Positions 36,025 to 55,963 of a DNA stretch of 64,000 nucleotides are shown piece after piece. Numbering within the stretch: the stretch's first letter is position 1; each line of letters starts with the position of its first letter. The notes under the pieces are model-generated. The model was not told the DNA's origin. It did no database searches and saw only the letters and a program-made list of their open reading frames with translations. Made by a program: the position numbers and the translations under genes. This stretch comes from Candidatus Uhrbacteria bacterium (GTDB lineage Bacteria; Patescibacteriota; Patescibacteriia; UBA9934; GWF2-40-263): contig CAIMOJ010000046.1 in the NCBI GenBank assembly GCA_903843045.1, positions 95,073-159,072 on the forward strand, written 5' to 3'.

Positions 36025-36113
36025 ACCGGGTGTTTTTTCTTCTTCGCCCGTTCCGTCAGGACGATCGGCAACGTCCTTGAGTCGCAGAGTCGTTGCGTGT
36101 AGGATGCTTGCAT

Positions 36114-36782
36114 ATGTTCACAGGAATCGTAAAAGGACTCGGAACGGTCGTCTCGGGCCACGCGCGGCCGGGACTCGTCAGCTTCACCGTCGAAATGCCC
36201 GCGGGATACGCGGACGGCTTACAAATCGGCGCGTCCGTCGCCATCGACGGGGTTTGCCTGACCGTCACCGACATGTACCCCTCTCCTTCACAAGGAGAGG
36301 GACAGGGTGAGGTCATCGCCTCGGCGTCCTTCGACGCGATGCAGGAAACGCTCGAACGAACGACCATCGGCGCGCTCGTCGAAGGTTCTCGCGTCAACGT
36401 CGAGCGATCCTATCGCGTCGGCGACGAGGTCGGCGGACACATCGTCTCCGGCCACGTCACCGGAACGGCCGATATCGTCGCGATCGACGCGCCGGAAAAC
36501 AACCACGTCATCACCTTCCGCGTCCCGCCGGAATGGATGAAGTACATCCTCCCCAAAGGATTCGTCGCCCTCGACGGATGCTCGCTCACCATCGTCGACG
36601 TCAACCGAACCGATTCGACCTTCACCGTCTGGCTCATCCCCGAGACGCTCCGAATGACAACCTTCGGCTTCAAGAAACCAGGCGACAAAGTAAACCTCGA
36701 GATCGATTCGAAGACCCAAACCATCGTCGACACCGTAGAATCTTTCCTATCCGTACATCCCCAGATCCGTAATTCGTACTAA
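36114..36782 (+). CDS. ribE: Riboflavin synthase alpha subunit
   Basis: Start at MFTGIVKGLG. Two lumazine-binding repeats. Carries the extra peptide YPSPSQGEGQGEV encoded by mini-element copy 3. Confidence 0.9.
   Translation: MFTGIVKGLGTVVSGHARPGLVSFTVEMPAGYADGLQIGASVAIDGVCLTVTDMYPSPSQGEGQGEVIASASFDAMQETLERTTIGALVEGSRVNVERSYRVGDEVGGHIVSGHVTGTADIVAIDAPENNHVITFRVPPEWMKYILPKGFVALDGCSLTIVDVNRTDSTFTVWLIPETLRMTTFGFKKPGDKVNLEIDSKTQTIVDTVESFLSVHPQIRNSY
36278..36314 (+). repeat. Intragenic palindromic mini-element, type II, copy 3 (in ribE)
   Basis: CCCCTCTCCTTCACAAGGAGAGGGACAGGGTGAGGTC with a 10-bp hairpin CCCTCTCCTT/AAGGAGAGGG. 36 of 37 nt identical to the copy at 51840-51876. Confidence 0.8.
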
Positions 36783-49228: not shown

Positions 49229-50644
49229 ATGGCGACATCCCACGCGGACCACGAGGTCTGGCAGAAAGAGCAGAATTTCATCTCGCAAAAGCGCAAGGAG
49301 AACCGAGAGCTGTTCGCGTCGTCGGACAAGGGCGCGTTCGATCTGTATGATCGAATCGGCATCACGTCGCATCCGCCGCAGCTGCCGAAGGGGTACGTGA
49401 AATATTCGCCGCTCGACTTCATCGTCGAGGAAATCCGTCCGGACGGAACGCTCATGACCGTCGACGGCCAGCCCGCCGTGCCGGAGACGCCCGACGGCGA
49501 GGGGACGATTTACGCGGATCTCACCAAGCTTGGCATCTCGACGCTCGACGCGGTCCAGCGCATGACCGACGTGCTTGGGGTTCCCCAGGACAAGATCGGC
49601 TACGCGGGAATCAAGGACGCGGTCGCGCTTACGGCGCAGCGAATCAGCGTCCGCGGAGGGTCGCTTGAGGCCGTGAAGAATCTCGCGATCACCGGCTGCC
49701 AGTTTCGACAGGTGGTCGACGGCAAGGGCGTGATCTCGACCGGCAACCTGAAGGGGAATCGGTTCACCCTTCTCATCCGCACGGAAGGCGAGCCCGACAA
49801 GGAGGCGTTCGCCGCGGCGATCGAGCTGGTGAAGACGCGGGGCGTGATGAACTACTACGGCACGCAGCGCTTCGGCACGCCGCGGTTTCTCGCCCACCTG
49901 TTCGGCGCGCACATCATGCGCGGCGACCTCGAATCGCTCATCAAGGCGTACCTCATGCAGCCGAGCCCGTACGAGCTCCCGTTCTACGCCAACATCCGGG
50001 CCGAGGCGGCCGCGGCGTATGGCGACTTTGCAAAGATGCAGACGATCATGGGAGTGCTCCCCTACTCGTTCCGCTACGAGCTCCAGATGCTCGAGGAGCT
50101 CGTCAAGAACCCGACGGGCTTCGAGGCGGCCATGAACCGCACGCAAAAGCAGGCGGACCTCTGGGCCCGCGCCTACGCCAGCTATCTCACCAACCTCATC
50201 CTCGCCGACGCGGAAAAAAACGGAACCAAGCTCCCGGACCGCATCCCGCTCCTCATCACGCAGGAACCGGAGGCGAAGCAGTTTTACGCGTCGTGGCTCA
50301 AACAGCACGGAACGGAGAGGTACATGGAGAACCTGAGAAAGTACCGGTTCATCAACGTGGGAAAGAACCAGACCATCGAGCCCGTCATCCGCCCGACGGT
50401 CCATGATTACAAGTTCGTCCCCGAGGGAATCGTCATCTCGTTCGACCTTCCGAAGGGCGCCTACGCGACAACGATCCTGATGTACCTGTTCGACTCCGTC
50501 AGCGGAACGCCGATTCCGGAATGGATGAACACGGCCGAGGTCGACACCAAGGAACTCCTCGGCACCGGCTCGCTCCGCCACGTCCGCGAACAATTTGCCG
50601 GGGAGATCGTTTCGGCGATGGCGAACAAGACGGACGACGAGTAG
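49229..50644 (+). CDS. truD: tRNA pseudouridine(13) synthase TruD
   Basis: 471 aa with catalytic-Asp motif GIKDAVALTAQRIS and NYYGTQRFG. Extended -10 TGgTAGAAT upstream. Confidence 0.88.
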   Translation: MATSHADHEVWQKEQNFISQKRKENRELFASSDKGAFDLYDRIGITSHPPQLPKGYVKYSPLDFIVEEIRPDGTLMTVDGQPAVPETPDGEGTIYADLTKLGISTLDAVQRMTDVLGVPQDKIGYAGIKDAVALTAQRISVRGGSLEAVKNLAITGCQFRQVVDGKGVISTGNLKGNRFTLLIRTEGEPDKEAFAAAIELVKTRGVMNYYGTQRFGTPRFLAHLFGAHIMRGDLESLIKAYLMQPSPYELPFYANIRAEAAAAYGDFAKMQTIMGVLPYSFRYELQMLEELVKNPTGFEAAMNRTQKQADLWARAYASYLTNLILADAEKNGTKLPDRIPLLITQEPEAKQFYASWLKQHGTERYMENLRKYRFINVGKNQTIEPVIRPTVHDYKFVPEGIVISFDLPKGAYATTILMYLFDSVSGTPIPEWMNTAEVDTKELLGTGSLRHVREQFAGEIVSAMANKTDDE

Positions 50645-51529: not shown

Positions 51530-52066
51530 TTATCTCACGTATAAATAGAGCTTTGCCGCCCCAGGCATCTCGTCGACTTTCGTGGGATTCCAATCCGGAA
51601 TTGGCCAGACGAACGAGACGAGTCGCGCTCCCGGTTTCAGTTCCGCTTCCAGTTTTGGGCGGATTTTTTCGTAGGTTTCAGGGAGAAGAAAGAGATATAC
51701 CGCGTCGGCGTCGCGAAGGTCGTAGGCGAACGCGTTGCCAAGGACGAAGCGGGTGTTCCAGGAACGCGTGATGATTCGACGGATCTGCGCGGCGATCCAC
51801 TGGATAATCGAGAGCTCGACGCCGACGGCGATGATCTTAGACCTCACCCTGTCCCTCTCCTTTTGAAGGAGAGGGGAGCTTAGAGCGAGGACGACCCTTC
51901 CGTCCCCGCAGCCGAGCTCGACGAATTTCTCCCCGTCCTTCAAATCCAACAGCCGTCGAATGCGCTCGATGTCCCGCTTGAACGTGGGAACCCAGGGCGC
52001 GCCCGAGGCGGAGGCGTAGGCGAGGGAAAAGAGGAGAATGAGGATTGGGATCCAGAGGAGGGACAT
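51530..52066 (-). CDS. Membrane-anchored class I SAM-dependent methyltransferase
   Basis: N-terminal TM, SAM motif I VELGCGDGRVV. Contains the extra peptide SSPLLQKERDRVRS encoded by mini-element copy 4. Paralog of the 59870-60412 gene. Confidence 0.7.
   Translation of the reverse strand: MSLLWIPILILLFSLAYASASGAPWVPTFKRDIERIRRLLDLKDGEKFVELGCGDGRVVLALSSPLLQKERDRVRSKIIAVGVELSIIQWIAAQIRRIITRSWNTRFVLGNAFAYDLRDADAVYLFLLPETYEKIRPKLEAELKPGARLVSFVWPIPDWNPTKVDEMPGAAKLYLYVR
51840..51876 (-). repeat. Intragenic palindromic mini-element, type II, copy 4 (in the methyltransferase gene)
   Basis: The reverse complement reads CCCCTCTCCTTCAAAAGGAGAGGGACAGGGTGAGGTC. It is translated in a different frame from copy 3. 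Confidence 0.8.
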
Positions 52067-52146
52067 AGCGGGCGTATTTTACCACGCATTCCCGTCTCTT
52101 GCGCGAAAAACGACATTCGGGTATTATTCTCCTCGCAAAGGGAAAT

Positions 52147-52281
52147 CGGGCTGTGGCGCAGATGGTAGCGCGCTTCGCGAGGGAGTGCAGGCGCAGAGAG
52201 GAGCCAACTGCTTGGCTCCGAACCGCCGGAACGGGCATGGCGTTATGCATCAGCATAGCCATGCACGGAAGAGGCCGTGGG
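52147..52281 (+). pseudogene. Scrambled partial tRNA-Pro copy (5' half 31 nt + 87-nt unrelated insert + 15-nt 3' fragment)
   Basis: 52147-52177 CGGGCTGTGGCGCAGATGGTAGCGCGCTTCG is identical to nt 1-31 of the intact tRNA-Pro. 52267-52281 GGAAGAGGCCGTGGG matches its anticodon-stem 3' side through the T-stem 5' side. The intervening 87 nt (52178-52264) contain the local hairpins GGAGCC...GGCTCC and GCATGGC...GCCATGC. No T-loop or acceptor 3' strand is present. Confidence 0.5.
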
Positions 52282-52297
52282 GGAAAATCGAATTAGT

Positions 52298-52373
52298 CGG
52301 GCTGTGGCGCAGATGGTAGCGCGCTTCGTTCGGGACGAAGAGGCCGTGGGTTCAAATCCCGCCAGCCCGACCA
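52298..52373 (+). tRNA. tRNA-Pro (anticodon CGG)
   Basis: Acceptor CGGGCTG/CAGCCCG, D-stem GCGC/GCGC, anticodon stem CTTCG/CGAAG with loop TTCGGGA, T-arm GTGGG-TTCAAAT-CCCGC, discriminator A, CCA encoded. Confidence 0.85.
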
Positions 52374-52414: not shown

Positions 52415-53398
52415 CTAGTAATCGATCCCTTCCCGCGCCTGCACCCCGCTGTAAAAATAATGCTTTCTTAATCTCATCTCCGTCACCAGATGCGCGTGGT
52501 CGAAGAACGCGTCCGGCGCGTTGCGGCCCGTCAGGACGACCTCGGTCTTCTCCGGTTTCTCGTCGAGGACGGACAAGACGGATTCGACGGACAACATCTT
52601 CAAATCGGTCGTCGAGTTGATCTCGTCGAGCACGACCAAGTCGTATCCCTCCGCGAACATCCTGCGAACCTCCTCGAGCCCGCGAGCCGCCTCGTCGCGA
52701 TCGATTTGCTGGATCGAGAAGTCGAACCGGTTCGTCACCGGATCGATGCGGTCGCGGCCCGTGGCGACGTATGCGGTGCCGACGCGATCGAGAATCGTCC
52801 GCTCCGAGTAGTGCGTATTCCCGCCCTTGTCGAAGAACACGATCCCGACCTTTTTTCCCGCCCCGGCAGCACGCACCGCCTCGCCGATTGCCGCGGTTGT
52901 CTTTCCCTTTCCGTTTCCCGTAAACAGTTGGATCAGTCCCAACCCCTGCCGCCCCACGATCGCCTTGTCCGCCGCGACGACGATCCCCTCGCTCTTGCGA
53001 TACGCGTCGACGACCTCCGCGATATGCCACGCCTCGATCTTTGCGCCGCGCGGATCGATCCAATCGTAGGAGACGTGCTCGTTCGACAGGACGATCTCGA
53101 CCTCGCCGACGGGAACGACGAAGTACAGGCAGAGGACGTATTCGACCTGGCTTGCCGTCTCGCTCAATTCCAACCCGTGGTAAATGCGTCGTCCCGCGAA
53201 GAACGGCTGGATCCCGGCCACGTCCAGGTCGAGCCCGGTCTCCTCGCGCAGTTCGCGCCGCAGTCCGTCGTGCGTCCCTTCCCCGGCGTCCATCCGCCCG
53301 CCCGGAAGGTCTTCCTTCCCGTTCGCGAGCCGCAGCATCAGGATCTTTCCGTGCGGATTGACGAGCAGCGCCTTGTTCGACACGTACATTTTTTCCAT
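52415..53398 (-). CDS. NUDIX hydrolase fused to cob(I)alamin adenosyltransferase (CobA/CobO/BtuR family)
   Basis: N-terminal Nudix box GGRMDAGEGTHDGLRRELREETGL. C-terminal P-loop QLFTGNGKGKTTAAIGEAVRAAG and VLDEI. Start MEKMY at 53398 (alternatives 53389, or GTG 53416). Confidence 0.8.
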   Translation of the reverse strand: MEKMYVSNKALLVNPHGKILMLRLANGKEDLPGGRMDAGEGTHDGLRRELREETGLDLDVAGIQPFFAGRRIYHGLELSETASQVEYVLCLYFVVPVGEVEIVLSNEHVSYDWIDPRGAKIEAWHIAEVVDAYRKSEGIVVAADKAIVGRQGLGLIQLFTGNGKGKTTAAIGEAVRAAGAGKKVGIVFFDKGGNTHYSERTILDRVGTAYVATGRDRIDPVTNRFDFSIQQIDRDEAARGLEEVRRMFAEGYDLVVLDEINSTTDLKMLSVESVLSVLDEKPEKTEVVLTGRNAPDAFFDHAHLVTEMRLRKHYFYSGVQAREGIDY

Positions 53399-53420
53399 AC
53401 GCCAACATGCTATCACGCCG

Positions 53421-53449
53421 TTGACATCCGGGCCAAAATGGCGTATGTT
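53421..53449 (+). promoter_or_regulatory. Sigma70-like promoter TTGACA-N17-TATGTT with SD AAGGAGA
   Basis: Sits immediately upstream of ATG 53479, divergent from the cobO fusion gene. Confidence 0.5.
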
Positions 53450-53478
53450 CGTGGCGGCATTTCGCCAAGGAGAAGTTC

Positions 53479-54243
53479 ATGCGTGGATTCTGTCTGTTGC
53501 CAGGGACCGTCAAGGGCGAGGCGTGCACGGTGCGCGTCCATCCGCTCAATCCGAACGCCGAGTACTTCGGCCCTCCCATTCCTCCGGAAATGAACGAGCT
53601 GTTCGAACGCACGCTGGACGCGACCGTCTCCGAGCTCGGAGGACCGCGGGTTGGCGGCGGGCGTCACGTCGAGGTCCGTCTCATCGACGAGTGGCTCGAG
53701 ACGAACTCGCGCCCGGGGCTTCGCAGGCTGTACGGCGGCGAGCCGCCCGCGCCGTTCAAGTACGAGCTGGCGAGACTCAAGCACTACATGAACGGCTGGA
53801 CGCGCGAGACTGACATCAAGGTCGGCTCCAAGGCGTTCATCTGGATCAAGGAGACGGGCGACATCCCGTGGCTCCACCGCGTACCCGATCAGCTCCCGTC
53901 CGCGTTCCCCCGCTACCCGCACGCGCAGACGGTGGGCTTCTGGGAGGCACGCATCGAGGCGATCAGCAAGCCCGCGGAAGGAATTCTCGTCCGCAAGGTG
54001 CGCGCCGTGCTCACCGACCTGCGCATCCGCAACCACGAGAACAGCGCCGTCGCCGTACTGCACGGACAGGAGCCCTGGATCGACTACACGGTGACGCTCG
54101 CCGCGAACGAGACCCTCGCCGCCATGGGCGAAGCCTGGGGCGCGCTCGGCGACTGGACCGAGGCAAGGACGCGCGGAATCAAGGTTCCCCGCTGGCTCCA
54201 GGACGTGGGCGAGCAGATCTGGGACCCGGACGACCTCCTCTAA
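53479..54243 (+). CDS. Hypothetical protein A (254 aa) of the orphan cluster
   Basis: Own promoter and SD. Terminator AGCCCCGAC-TCCG-GTCGGGGCT plus a T-tract at 54243-54270. No recognisable domain. Confidence 0.55.
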   Translation: MRGFCLLPGTVKGEACTVRVHPLNPNAEYFGPPIPPEMNELFERTLDATVSELGGPRVGGGRHVEVRLIDEWLETNSRPGLRRLYGGEPPAPFKYELARLKHYMNGWTRETDIKVGSKAFIWIKETGDIPWLHRVPDQLPSAFPRYPHAQTVGFWEARIEAISKPAEGILVRKVRAVLTDLRIRNHENSAVAVLHGQEPWIDYTVTLAANETLAAMGEAWGALGDWTEARTRGIKVPRWLQDVGEQIWDPDDLL

Positions 54244-54317
54244 GCCCCGACTCCGGTCGGGGCTCTTTTCATTGACAATCGGGAAAATTCCTGTCACGAT
54301 CTCCCTCGGAGAGTCAC

Positions 54318-54737
54318 ATGGCAAACATCGTATCGGACCGACTGCTGTGCGCCATCGGCCGCGCGCCCGGGACCGATCCGCCCCCGGATACGTTTCGAGA
54401 AGGGTCGCACAGGGAGCAGTTCCGCGCCGAGTGGGATGGCGATATCCCACTGGCAGTCGCAAACGTAGCCCTCGCGCTCGAGATCGCCCGCCGCAGGATT
54501 TTCACGCGCGTCATCCTCGACGTCCTGAGGGCGTCCTCGACCTCGCAGATTCCCCCGATGGCGAAACGACAGCACTTGGAAAAGCGCAAGCTCGTCCGCG
54601 GAGAGATCATCGACGGGCTTGGCCACTGGGACGTCGCTCCCGCCGGCCACGAGCTCCTTCGTTCCTCCGCAATCGTCGCGACGATCCCCGAGGAGACGAT
54701 CCGCGCCATCCTTGCTCGCCACGGAATGGCAGCCTGA
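54318..54737 (+). CDS. Hypothetical protein B (139 aa) of the orphan cluster
   Basis: Preceded by TTTCATTGACA (-35 TTGACA at 54273-54278). Terminator GACGACCG-AACC-CCGGTCGT plus T6 at 54736-54761. Confidence 0.5.
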   Translation: MANIVSDRLLCAIGRAPGTDPPPDTFREGSHREQFRAEWDGDIPLAVANVALALEIARRRIFTRVILDVLRASSTSQIPPMAKRQHLEKRKLVRGEIIDGLGHWDVAPAGHELLRSSAIVATIPEETIRAILARHGMAA

Positions 54738-54824
54738 CGACCGAACCCCGGTCGTTTTTTCATTGACAGGATTGAATTTCCATGCCAGCATATTCGCGCA
54801 ACGCCATGACAAGGAGATCGAGCC

Positions 54825-55430
54825 ATGGGCAGTCCACTCAGCCTCACGGAATTCAAGCGGATCAAGAGACAGCACGGGCAAAAGGTCGCGGAAGCGGCAA
54901 ACCGGGGGGAGTACGCGCATCTTGTGCGACAGATTCGGACCCCCCTCACGGTGTCCGGCCCCGATTTTGAGGAGGTCGAGCGTCCGCCTCGCCAGGAGAG
55001 ACCGGAACGTCCATCCGTCGAAAGGACGGCGCGTCCGTTCATGGTTCGACCGAACCCCTTCCCGACCGAAGCGGTTCCTGAAGTTCCCAAGAAGGAGACG
55101 ATCGTCGAGGTACCAAAGCCGAGCCGACCGATCCTGAACCCCATCCAGGCGCGGTTCGCCGCCATCGCCTGGAACGTCCAGGGGCAGCTGAGGCGCCCGC
55201 CGACCAAGGCCGAGCTCGAGGTCATCCGGGAGAGGATCTTCTTCGGAGGGAACTTCTTCGGAGCGATGAGCGCGCTCGAGCGTCTCGGCGCCGTCGCCCG
55301 CGACGACGACGGCGACAGCATCCGCTACCGCGTCCACGAGCCGCGAACGGCGGCCCTGCAGCCAAGCGACTACAAGATCGTCCGCGCGGCCGTGACGGGC
55401 GTCACGAACGAAAGCGACGAGCCCGCTTGA
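54825..55430 (+). CDS. Hypothetical protein C (201 aa, Pro/Glu/Arg-rich middle) of the orphan cluster
   Basis: Preceded by TTTTCATTGACA (54764-54769) and SD AAGGAGA. Confidence 0.5.
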   Translation: MGSPLSLTEFKRIKRQHGQKVAEAANRGEYAHLVRQIRTPLTVSGPDFEEVERPPRQERPERPSVERTARPFMVRPNPFPTEAVPEVPKKETIVEVPKPSRPILNPIQARFAAIAWNVQGQLRRPPTKAELEVIRERIFFGGNFFGAMSALERLGAVARDDDGDSIRYRVHEPRTAALQPSDYKIVRAAVTGVTNESDEPA

Positions 55431-55819
55431 CTCGAACGGCGTTTCCGAAGACAATTGTCCTGCCAGCCATCCGCTCCCGCCACACCCCGAGGTTCTCCGC
55501 CATGCCCCTGCCCCCGCAAACGTTCGCCCCCACGCCCGAGCCGCTCACCAAGCTCACCTATCTGCTCCTGTGCCGCCTGTGCGACGACCACGACGCCGTC
55601 GTCGTCCCGCGCGACCTGTTGCTCAGCCATATCGCCCGGTGGTCGCTCATCGACAACCCCGCCGGCACGCTCGATCACCTGCGACGCAACAAGGTCGTCG
55701 TTGAGCTGAACGACGGCCGCGTCCGCGTCCGCCGCCCGAAGCGCGATCTCAAGAGCCTTCCCGGCTCGCTTCCGCACAACTGGCTCCTGCTCCTCCGTGG
55801 AACGACGGCCACCCTCTGA
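55427..55819 (+). CDS. Hypothetical protein D (up to 130 aa) of the orphan cluster
   Basis: Overlaps gene C by 4 nt. Alternative internal start MPLPPQTF at 55499. Terminator GACGACC-AATC-GGTCGTC plus T8 at 55818-55846. Confidence 0.4.
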   Translation: MTRTAFPKTIVLPAIRSRHTPRFSAMPLPPQTFAPTPEPLTKLTYLLLCRLCDDHDAVVVPRDLLLSHIARWSLIDNPAGTLDHLRRNKVVVELNDGRVRVRRPKRDLKSLPGSLPHNWLLLLRGTTATL

Positions 55820-55963
55820 CGACCAATCGGTCGTCCTTTTTTTTCGGCCTGCGGGCTTCTGCGAATAACGTATGAGCTGCCAATCACACAAATTGCTACG
55901 GATTGCCACGAATACAAAAGGCCGGGGGAATACCCTCGGCCTTTCTTTTCGTCAGCGGTTGGA

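Follow-up and report, generated by a model that had tools for sequence, protein, structure and literature searches.

Lineage-specific accessory genes between nrdJ and cobO of a Candidatus Uhrbacteria genome, laid out as putative transcription cassettes and possibly reshuffled at repeated junctions

A 64 kb stretch (hereafter the window) from a contig of Candidatus Uhrbacteria, a lineage of the candidate phyla radiation (CPR), carries between nrdJ and cobO an insert of 2.55 kb with four genes, A to D, all on the strand opposite to nrdJ and cobO. We read them as accessory cassettes that would be independently transcribed and reshuffled at conserved junctions; as a whole this reading seems to us slightly on the probable side, and the part that concerns architecture and evolution is reasonably likely. 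An earlier note on this DNA had placed the cluster between the cobO-nudix gene and nrdJ, and four same-strand open reading frames (ORFs) are found there. Contigs of related genomes compared with the window are designated by L and a number. The genes and the signals around them are the following.

53407-53436, minus strand: candidate divergent promoter of cobO, -35 TTGGCC (53436-53431), 18-nt spacer, TG-extended -10 TAGCAT (53412-53407)
53421-53449, plus strand: putative promoter of A, -35 TTGACA (53421-53426), 17-nt spacer, -10 TATGTT (53444-53449), 10 of 12 positions in a consensus scan
53479-54243, plus strand: gene A, 254 aa, ribosome-binding site AAGGAGA (53467-53473)
54243-54270, plus strand: predicted terminator of A, hairpin 54243-54264 with a 9-bp stem (7 GC pairs), then CTTTTC; -19.9 kcal/mol, z -5.0
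54265-54290, plus strand: left repeated junction, T-tract, CATTGACA, spacer ...GAAAATTCC; left bound of the B cassette
54272-54300, plus strand: putative promoter of B, -35 TTGACA (54272-54277), 17-nt spacer, TGt + CACGAT (54292-54300)
54318-54737, plus strand: gene B, 139 aa, ribosome-binding site GGAGAG (54308-54313)
54736-54761, plus strand: predicted terminator of B, hairpin 54736-54756 with stem GACGACCG/CGGTCGTT, then T-tract; -12.0 kcal/mol, z -2.0
54756-54781, plus strand: right repeated junction, T-tract, CATTGACA, spacer ...GAATTTCC
54763-54791, plus strand: putative promoter of C, -35 TTGACA (54763-54768), 17-nt spacer, TGc + CAGCAT (54783-54791)
54825-55430, plus strand: gene C, 201 aa, ribosome-binding site AAGGAGA (54811-54817)
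55427-55455, plus strand: promoter-like site of D, -35 TTGACT (55427-55432), 17-nt spacer, -10 GACAAT (55450-55455), 9 of 12 matches
55502-55819, plus strand: gene D, 105 aa, GAGG at 55489-55492
55818-55845, plus strand: predicted terminator of D, GACGACC-AATC-GGTCGTC (hairpin 55818-55835), then CTTTTTTTT; -11.6 kcal/mol, z -2.9
55917-55944, no strand assigned: two-way hairpin of 12 pairs just downstream of the nrdJ stop; -25.8 kcal/mol on the minus strand, z -5.1

The signals show A and B each as a predicted monocistronic unit, in which a sigma-70-type promoter and a Shine-Dalgarno site precede the gene and an intrinsic terminator follows it; for C they show a putative promoter of its own and no terminator, and for D a promoter-like site and a predicted terminator. 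The earlier note had put a hairpin and T-tract after A, B and C and a separate terminator after D, which holds for A, B and D but not for C, the stretch after its stop folding no better than shuffles (z +0.87). The hairpins and T-tracts of A, B and D start at or no more than 1 nt from the stop codons, and the stop codon TGA of B forms the first part of its terminator stem. This terminator is 74% identical over 27 nt to that of D (repeat family D7); a hairpin similar to that of D, GACGACC...GGTCGTC-T(n), follows the D homolog of L003, and a related shorter one follows the C homolog of L004. Counted with a stringent terminator definition, three of the four cluster genes have a terminator at their end, against about 8-9 of the approximately 59 other genes in the window. 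Exact TTGACA occurs 16 times in the window, 11 of them intergenic; about 11 copies lie 37-90 nt upstream of gene starts, several with TAnnnT 17 nt downstream, and TTGACA-17-TAnnnT appears to be the usual promoter form of this genome. Three of the approximately 11 promoter-positioned hexamers fall in the 2.4 kb of the cluster, and these terminator and TTGACA counts together indicate that the modular layout is real and denser than the local background. The AAGGAGA ribosome-binding sites previously reported for A and C are present.

The joints between the units are themselves repeated. TTTCATTGACA is found in exactly two copies in the window, directly after the terminators of A and B; the T-tracts run straight into CATTGACA, so that the same terminator-tail/promoter sequence of about 25 nt recurs between units, and the T-tract of one unit may double as the upstream edge of the next promoter. 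That each terminator runs into TTT(T)CATTGACA, as had been described, is true at two junctions, after A and after B, and fails at the third because C has no terminator. For the same reason read-through from C into D is possible, and the C transcript probably extends into D.

These signals are conserved in close relatives. The A promoter has one change in about 80 nt relative to the 93% relatives. In L082 and L083 the -35, TG and -10 of B are unchanged, with variation in the n of TGn and in the untranslated region, and the sole change in the B terminator lies in the loop. Of eight substitutions found in these two contigs in the A-B and B-C spacers none hits a -35, TG, -10 or ribosome-binding site, one falls in a loop and another in a stem (C to T opposite G, by reading a kept wobble pair). 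The C promoter is kept in L082, L083, L087 and L088, and in the last two so are TTGACT and GAAGACAAT of the D site, whose TTGACT hexamer contains the stop codon TGA of C. Palindromes in the B promoter (TGACA-N14-TGTCA) and in the D promoter (GACAATTGTC) were considered as operators and dropped, since they are not enriched in the window and L087 and L088 do not share them. Rfam gave no RNA family within the cluster.

The four genes are genuine coding genes. An independent gene caller, run on the matching ENA contig, returned products of 254, 139, 201 and 105 aa. Their GC content by codon position (0.79-0.89 at the third position, 0.45-0.50 at the second) resembles that of the neighbours nrdJ and cobO; the codon usage is host-like, with no recent import. 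Compared at 93-95% nucleotide identity with the Candidatus Uhrbacteria metagenome-assembled genome (MAG) ELA555 (contigs L082 and L002), the ratio of nonsynonymous to synonymous substitution rates (dN/dS) comes to 0.27 in A, 0.12 in B and 0.38 in C; D, with no nonsynonymous and seven synonymous changes, has a value of 0. In the same comparison cobO gives 0.08 and nrdJ 0.09. D had been thought to overlap C and to reach up to 130 aa; the ATG at 55502 is preferred over the overlapping TTG at 55427 on account of the gene call and of the homologs in L003, L087 and L088, all of which begin at an equivalent MP(L/S)..PPQ, and the start of D is thus probably this ATG, with no overlap. A 22-nt inverted repeat, 91% complementary, has its arms at 55293-55314 (3' part of C, VARDDDG) and 55594-55615 (5' part of D, AVVVPRD); the arms could pair around the start of D in a C-D read-through transcript, and equally may be a matter of chance in GC-rich coding DNA.

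The neighbourhood comparison proposed in the earlier note bore out its view of separable units, since the differences among relatives concern entire units (A alone, A-C-D, B-C lacking D, or D alone), as listed here.

L007, L084, L085: A only, between cobO and nrdJ
L082 + L002, L083, L087: gene order of the window
L004: B', terminator, C', terminator, nrdJ; D absent
L003: 3' end of tRNA-Pro, CATTGACA promoter, D', terminator, nrdJ
L088: cobO, A', C', D'; B absent

The end of contig L003 (7790-7899) consists of tandem 18-nt units (ACGGCGGGGTCCCGCCCG) merging into the 3' end of tRNA-Pro, and is probably an assembly artefact, so the placement of tRNA-Pro next to D in this contig has to be read with care.

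The A'-C' junction of L088 is a hybrid: its left part (A terminator, T-tract, TTGACA, ATCGGGAAA) is that of the A-B junction of the window, and its right part (TTCC ATGCCAGCAT ... AAGGAG) that of the B-C junction. The B unit is thus bounded by two homologous copies of the terminator-tail/promoter sequence, at 54265-54290 and 54756-54781, and comprises 491 nt with B, its -10, its terminator and the next -35; as read from these junctions, gain or loss of the unit would leave one intact promoter.

Identity along the cluster changes abruptly. Against L088 the window shows 80-94% identity over the A promoter and the 5' end of cobO; in the A ORF, apart from a few higher windows, this drops to 38-66%, the proteins being 47% identical, before it rises to 88-92% over the A terminator and the following promoter; beyond that it is 48-86%, mostly 50-80%. 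Against L087, A and B are 80-98% identical; between 54746 and about 54975, a stretch that covers the C promoter and the N-terminal domain of C, identity is 97-100%, and afterwards 52-80%; the switch would place an approximate recombination breakpoint at 54975-54985 (plus strand), at the start of the linker of C. L087 and L088, compared with each other, show 60-76% in the 5' part of C and 85-95% across its C-terminal domain, whose variants are homologous, at about 58% identity. L087 covers only the first 20 residues of D. Such a mosaic is what would be expected from recombination at conserved joints and within the C linker.

The place of the insert fits this picture. The nrdJ genes of the window and of ELA555 are 97% identical; the 45 best nrdJ matches are almost all from Uhrbacteria or Patescibacteria, with about 10 records labelled otherwise. 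NrdJ requires adenosylcobalamin, which CobO produces, and their pairing is therefore sensible; cobO lies downstream of nrdJ on the same strand with a gap of 0-110 bp in 14 loci and of 0.15-5.6 kb in 17 others. The contents of the larger gaps differ between lineages and are unrelated to one another:

L012: PaaX-like regulator
L024: Mrr-type nuclease
L032: IS200-type transposase and ribH
L020: HD, Fic-like and TerC genes
L037: xanthine-dehydrogenase genes
L013: surface protein of 1176 aa
L036, L043: stand-alone Nudix gene

From these unrelated contents we take the nrdJ-cobO joint to be a recurrent insertion or breakpoint spot, of which the insert of the window is one version. In L033 (13186-14648) the spacer has two paralogous proteins of about 240 aa, 27% identical to each other; one has a sub-threshold MarR_2 match (E 0.006), and the N-terminal pattern of the two resembles D by eye.

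A is the best documented of the four genes. A word-indexed search of 5.8 billion proteins retrieved only A itself, and an iterative search of the ORFs downstream of nrdJ in relatives found homologs in L005, L007, L045, L015, L020 and L010, all six on the strand opposite nrdJ and five of them in the nrdJ-cobO spacer; where cobO adjoins A, the two are on opposite strands. The A-family profile recovered only 7 proteins in the 5.8 billion, both named ones from Uhrbacteria. A promoter of the form TTGAC[AC]-17-TAnnnT is present upstream of the orthologs in L007, L045, L020, L085 and L005 (five of six examined), an AGGAG-type ribosome-binding site is kept, and every ortholog examined ends, as read from its sequence, in a GC-rich terminator-like hairpin with a T-run. 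In L088 the A terminator retains 88-92% identity, against only 38-66% nucleotide identity in the ORF. The family, promoter and terminator evidence together indicate that A is no strict orphan but a long-lived monocistronic gene, fast in its evolution and restricted to one part of the clade; there it has been kept long, beside cobO in most lineages examined, and appears to be vertically inherited. The orphan status given earlier to the whole cluster holds as regards recognised domains in A-D, but A belongs to a small family confined to Uhrbacteria.

The family alignment shows two tandem units of about 100 aa (GxxCxIxI ... DxRI ... GxEPPxxYxV), and the N- and C-terminal halves of A match each other with an hhalign probability of 97.9% (E 3e-13). 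A is composed of two tandem beta-rich domains of this size followed by C-terminal helices, and the structural model suggests two small beta-barrels, its best neighbours being tandem Tudor-like barrels, with fold matches to generic small barrels; Y95, W155 and Y203 are conserved aromatic residues. A Pfam scan of all family members gave only scattered chance matches, and a fold search of A against BFVD was negative. A may be a cytoplasmic two-barrel protein, possibly tied to cobO through a shared control region, although we infer this only weakly.

B, C and D are confined to the closest relatives. Homologs of B occur in L082 and L083 (93%) and in L087 (90%), with a C-terminal fragment in L004 (38%) and none in L088; those of D occur in L002 (100% at the amino acid level), L003 (51%) and L088 (46%), with the start of one in L087, and D is weakly similar to a 186-aa ORF beside the A homolog of L005 (pairwise E 0.009). 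C retrieved five proteins in the word-indexed search of 5.8 billion. A full HMMER search with the profile of its C-terminal domain gave three matches at E<=0.001 in 1.84 billion representatives, of which only two are convincing, the third being a protein of 5152 aa (E 4.4e-04). Three parts make up C: a short, conserved helical domain at the N-terminus (residues 1-40), a linker rich in Pro, Arg and Glu that varies in length and is modelled with low confidence (about 42-104), and a C-terminal domain (106-170). In the AlphaFold2 (AF2) model the N-terminus has a pLDDT (per-residue model confidence) of 73-85, and the C-terminal domain, at 51-63, is modelled in the order helix-helix-helix-strand-strand, which is typical of winged helices. 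The helix-wing stretch of C gave a sub-threshold match (E 1.1) to the ArsR-type regulator Rv0081; by eye B and D, like C, show a recognition-helix-like stretch followed by a Gly/Asp-rich hairpin, and at this stretch hhalign also lines up D with C and with the proteins of L005 and L033, though not significantly. The likeliest reading of these proteins, tentative and in itself rather doubtful, is that B, the C-terminal domain of C and D are small winged-helix proteins with DNA-binding or regulatory roles and strain-variable specificity.

The earlier note had found no recognisable domains in A-D, and this was borne out. Pfam, PHROG and PADLOC gave no match at E<=0.01 for any of the four, PADLOC-DB 2.0 no family even at E<=1, and NCBIfam one sub-threshold match, for D; sequence and profile searches of the Protein Data Bank (PDB) with A, B, C and D returned nothing significant, and no match to any family was significant in either the library or the PDB searches. 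Weak PDB matches (XkdT-like baseplate protein, ribosomal protein L23, clusterin, viral 3D polymerase) were treated as chance. IMG/VR pattern scans and tblastn against GenBank phages were negative for viral similarity of A-D. We also considered B, C and D as paralogs of one another, but BLASTP and hhalign were not significant and no paralogy is claimed; nor did jackhmmer, started from B, D and each half of C, reveal a paralog among all ORFs of the window and the Uhrbacteria loci.

Several observations weigh against the reading of reshuffled cassettes with regulator-like products. B and C have only weak -10 hexamers (CACGAT and CAGCAT), although a TGn precedes each. The evidence for recombination comes from two short contigs of short-read assemblies, L087 (1667 nt) and L088 (1894 nt), which may be chimeric, and the conservation of the joints could stem in part from purifying selection on promoters and terminators rather than from recombination. 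As to the products, no winged-helix family was matched significantly by B, C or D in Pfam, NCBIfam or the PDB sequences, and the profile-profile comparisons among the three gave probabilities below 4%. The segments of L087 and L088, for their part, are no simple copies of the window type.

With these points taken into account, we still favour the accessory-cassette reading, which may be put as follows. A small array of lineage-specific accessory genes would have accumulated at the recurrently disrupted nrdJ-cobO joint. Since the insert separates cobO from nrdJ, cobO would use a promoter of its own, back to back with that of A. The terminators of the cluster, with the hairpin downstream of the nrdJ stop, may insulate the convergent nrdJ from read-through; that hairpin (55917-55944) would serve both as the terminator of nrdJ and as a backstop for the cluster. 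The conserved joints would be the recombination sites at which, judging from the relatives, whole units are gained, lost or replaced, and B, C and D might bind DNA as small regulators with strain-specific variants. The suggestion of an accessory module for defence, toxin-immunity or regulation therefore stands as far as a variable module of largely independent units is concerned, but no link to defence or to toxin-antitoxin systems was found; of the three roles, regulation agrees best with the faint winged-helix-like traits of B, C and D, although that assignment failed every statistical test run.

The alternative that survives best, though we think it improbable, is a module for specificity or immunity, be it anti-phage defence of a new sort, a toxin with its immunity partner or an immunity region of the repressor type. 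D and the C-terminal domain of C would then be cognate partners whose diverged alleles are maintained by balancing selection, with A and B as additional components. The sharp mosaic boundaries and deeply diverged alleles between conserved joints agree with it, as does the divergent segment of L087, which reaches from the linker of C across its C-terminal domain into the beginning of D. In close relatives the contigs are interrupted within C or between it and D, L082 stopping close to the end of C, L083 inside it and L002 opening with D; such breaks fit strain heterogeneity. In other lineages defence-type genes (Mrr, Fic-like) occupy the same spot. On the other hand, A-D have no PADLOC, Pfam or PHROG match, no enzymatic, toxin or secretion domain and no phage similarity; the variants of the C-terminal domain of C are homologous (about 58%), unlike the replacement by unrelated domains in polymorphic toxins; the genes are under short-term purifying selection; A stands alone in several lineages; and terminators separate A from B and B from C, which argues against a classical operon-type toxin-antitoxin pair. 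In its boldest form the idea would be that the nrdJ-cobO joint hosts an undescribed strain-specificity locus, with DNA-binding-like small proteins and a tandem-barrel protein carried as promoter-to-promoter cassettes that are exchanged by recombination at the repeated joint, and with diverged alleles (the A types; the C-terminal domain of C together with D) under balancing selection, amounting to a new CPR system of defence, immunity or host interaction; this too we consider unlikely.

Less probable still is that A is tied by its function to cobalamin, say by regulating or assisting cobO or nrdJ, and that B-D are unrelated later additions. A lies opposite the cobO strand in the window and in L082, L083, L007, L084, L085, L088, L045, L015 and L020, and the start codons of the two genes are about 80 nt apart in the window. 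Their putative promoters overlap as well: the candidate -10 of cobO ends 8 nt before the cobO ATG (53398), and the cobO promoter, if rightly recognised, possibly overlaps that of A back to back. A GGGyMAAAA motif in the spacer of the A promoter, whose reverse complement is TTGACC or TTTACC, is conserved in the orthologs. This explanation is, however, based on gene order alone; many Uhrbacteria with nrdJ-cobO have no A at this spot, cobO is missing beside the A of L010 and L005, neither a cobalamin-binding nor a regulator domain turned up, and the fold matches of A are to generic small barrels.

We give a slightly lower chance to a remnant of a mobile element, a prophage or integrative element whose moron-like genes were left beside tRNA-Pro. 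The promoter-gene-terminator layout recalls phage morons, tRNA-Pro has a truncated second copy 150 bp upstream, and an IS200-type transposase is present in the same spacer of L032. Nevertheless, no integrase, phage or plasmid gene is found between tRNA-Pro and nrdJ, direct repeats flanking A-D are absent, codon usage is host-like, IMG/VR, GenBank phages and BFVD gave no match, and A appears vertically inherited in part of the clade. The earlier note had placed the cluster next to a rearranged tRNA-Pro locus; tRNA-Pro(CGG) adjoins cobO in several relatives, with and without the full insert, and this conserved adjacency is no mark of insertion and gives no sign of an integrated element. Integration at tRNA-Pro was accordingly rejected, given the lack of an integrase and of flanking repeats and the conserved adjacency.

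Finally, the view that A-D are nonfunctional, either chance open frames in GC-rich DNA or decaying sequence, could draw on the absence of known domains and on the long spurious ORFs frequent on both strands of the window, but it is strongly disfavoured, and next to negligible, in view of dN/dS values far below 1, a codon-position GC pattern as in real genes, homologs kept at 25-50% identity with invariant residues in common, and conserved promoters, ribosome-binding sites and terminators.

Phage morons are autonomous promoter-gene-terminator units between conserved genes of lambdoid and other phages. Like them, A and B have a putative sigma-70-type promoter and an intrinsic terminator of their own and D a promoter-like site with a terminator, the units lie between genes that are adjacent in related genomes, and their presence varies unit by unit; TTGACA or TTGACT, a spacer of 17 nt and a -10-like hexamer can be read before all four genes, and a terminator of its own is present for A, B and D and absent for C. 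Unlike morons, A-D reside in a CPR chromosome with no phage genes nearby and no viral similarity, A is old and apparently vertical, and the units share a repeated terminator-promoter joint as the apparent site of exchange. Membership among the morons fails because there is no phage context, the flanks being cobO-nudix and nrdJ.

Integration hotspots and variable regions between conserved core genes have been described in many bacteria. The locus resembles these chromosomal hotspots in having the same flanks with a content that differs by lineage, including nuclease, transposase and regulator genes, and departs from them in its strongly reduced CPR genome, in the tiny inserts (0.5-5.6 kb), in the family-less small genes of the lineage of the window, and in that exchange apparently takes place at promoter/terminator joints rather than att sites. 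It is likewise unlike a tRNA-linked island, with no integrase between tRNA-Pro and nrdJ and no repeat flanking A-D. From type II toxin-antitoxin systems it differs by the terminators between A and B and between B and C, only C and D being without one, 71 nt apart and with a promoter-like site, and by the lack of any match to a toxin or antitoxin family in Pfam or PADLOC. As to polymorphic toxins, identity switches abruptly within C, but its C-terminal variants are homologous, and C, at 201 aa, has no Pfam domain and, by inspection rather than a signal-peptide predictor, no hydrophobic signal-like N-terminus.

Among protein families, winged-helix factors (MarR, ArsR and LexA-N-terminal types) are comparable in size (105-139 aa, or a domain of about 100 aa), in the modelled helix-helix-helix-hairpin order of C and in the recognition-helix-like stretch with Gly/Asp-rich hairpin of B, C and D; they are unlike in that no sequence or fold match is significant and that the families of B, C and D are restricted to essentially one Uhrbacteria lineage. 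A may resemble tandem Tudor, SAWADEE and PWWP domains (the 'Royal family') and other pairs of SH3-like barrels in its duplicated beta-rich domain of about 100 aa, its Tudor-like neighbours and the residues Y95, W155 and Y203.

Some features of the surroundings are recorded here. The cobO gene of the window (cobO-nudix, 52415-53398, minus strand) is fused to an N-terminal Nudix domain; the fusion is also found in L008, L013, L015 and L020, the Nudix is a separate gene ahead of cobO in L036 and L043, and other relatives match the cobO part only, with little room between nrdJ and cobO. The truncated tRNA-Pro(CGG) duplicate (52146-52289), 150 bp upstream of the intact gene (52298-52373), repeats 31 nt from the start of the gene and 14 nt of the T-arm region, with an insert of about 88 nt between them and the 3' end missing; a promoter-like TTGCGC-17-TATTAT lies upstream, and the duplicated 5' segment also occurs in the 93% relative L082. 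tRNA-Ile(GAT) (49858-49952) has a called length of 95 nt, its anticodon falling at position 38; this is unusually long and may be due to an insertion or intron. A palindromic element of about 37 nt (GACCTCACCCTGTCCCTCTCCTTTTGAAGGAGAGGGG) occurs at 51839-51876 and 36265-36305, inside two different protein-coding genes (a 178-aa gene at 51530-52066 and a gene at 36093-36782), with a related copy inside the nrdJ of a relative (L003, 6527-6564) and none expected in shuffles; it looks like a small repeat inserted into coding sequence. Rfam gave a weak sub-threshold match to 'whalefall-1' at 51851-51892. A literature search on this locus found nothing.

CPR bacteria have tiny genomes in which a large share of the genes is without known relatives, and the origin, turnover and expression of such genes are poorly understood. 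This locus offers a clean small example, in which genes that lack known relatives form transcription units of a largely self-sufficient kind, at a hotspot flanked by two core genes with linked functions. Should the mosaic pattern prove false, there would be merely four hypothetical genes with tidy expression signals; if it is true, it would represent a simple route of gene-cassette exchange in reduced genomes with neither an att site nor integron machinery, and would make A and the pair formed by the C-terminal domain of C and D candidates for strain-specific functions. Overall, the cluster neatly illustrates accessory cassettes that are specific to one lineage of CPR bacteria, and its recombination pattern is of interest.

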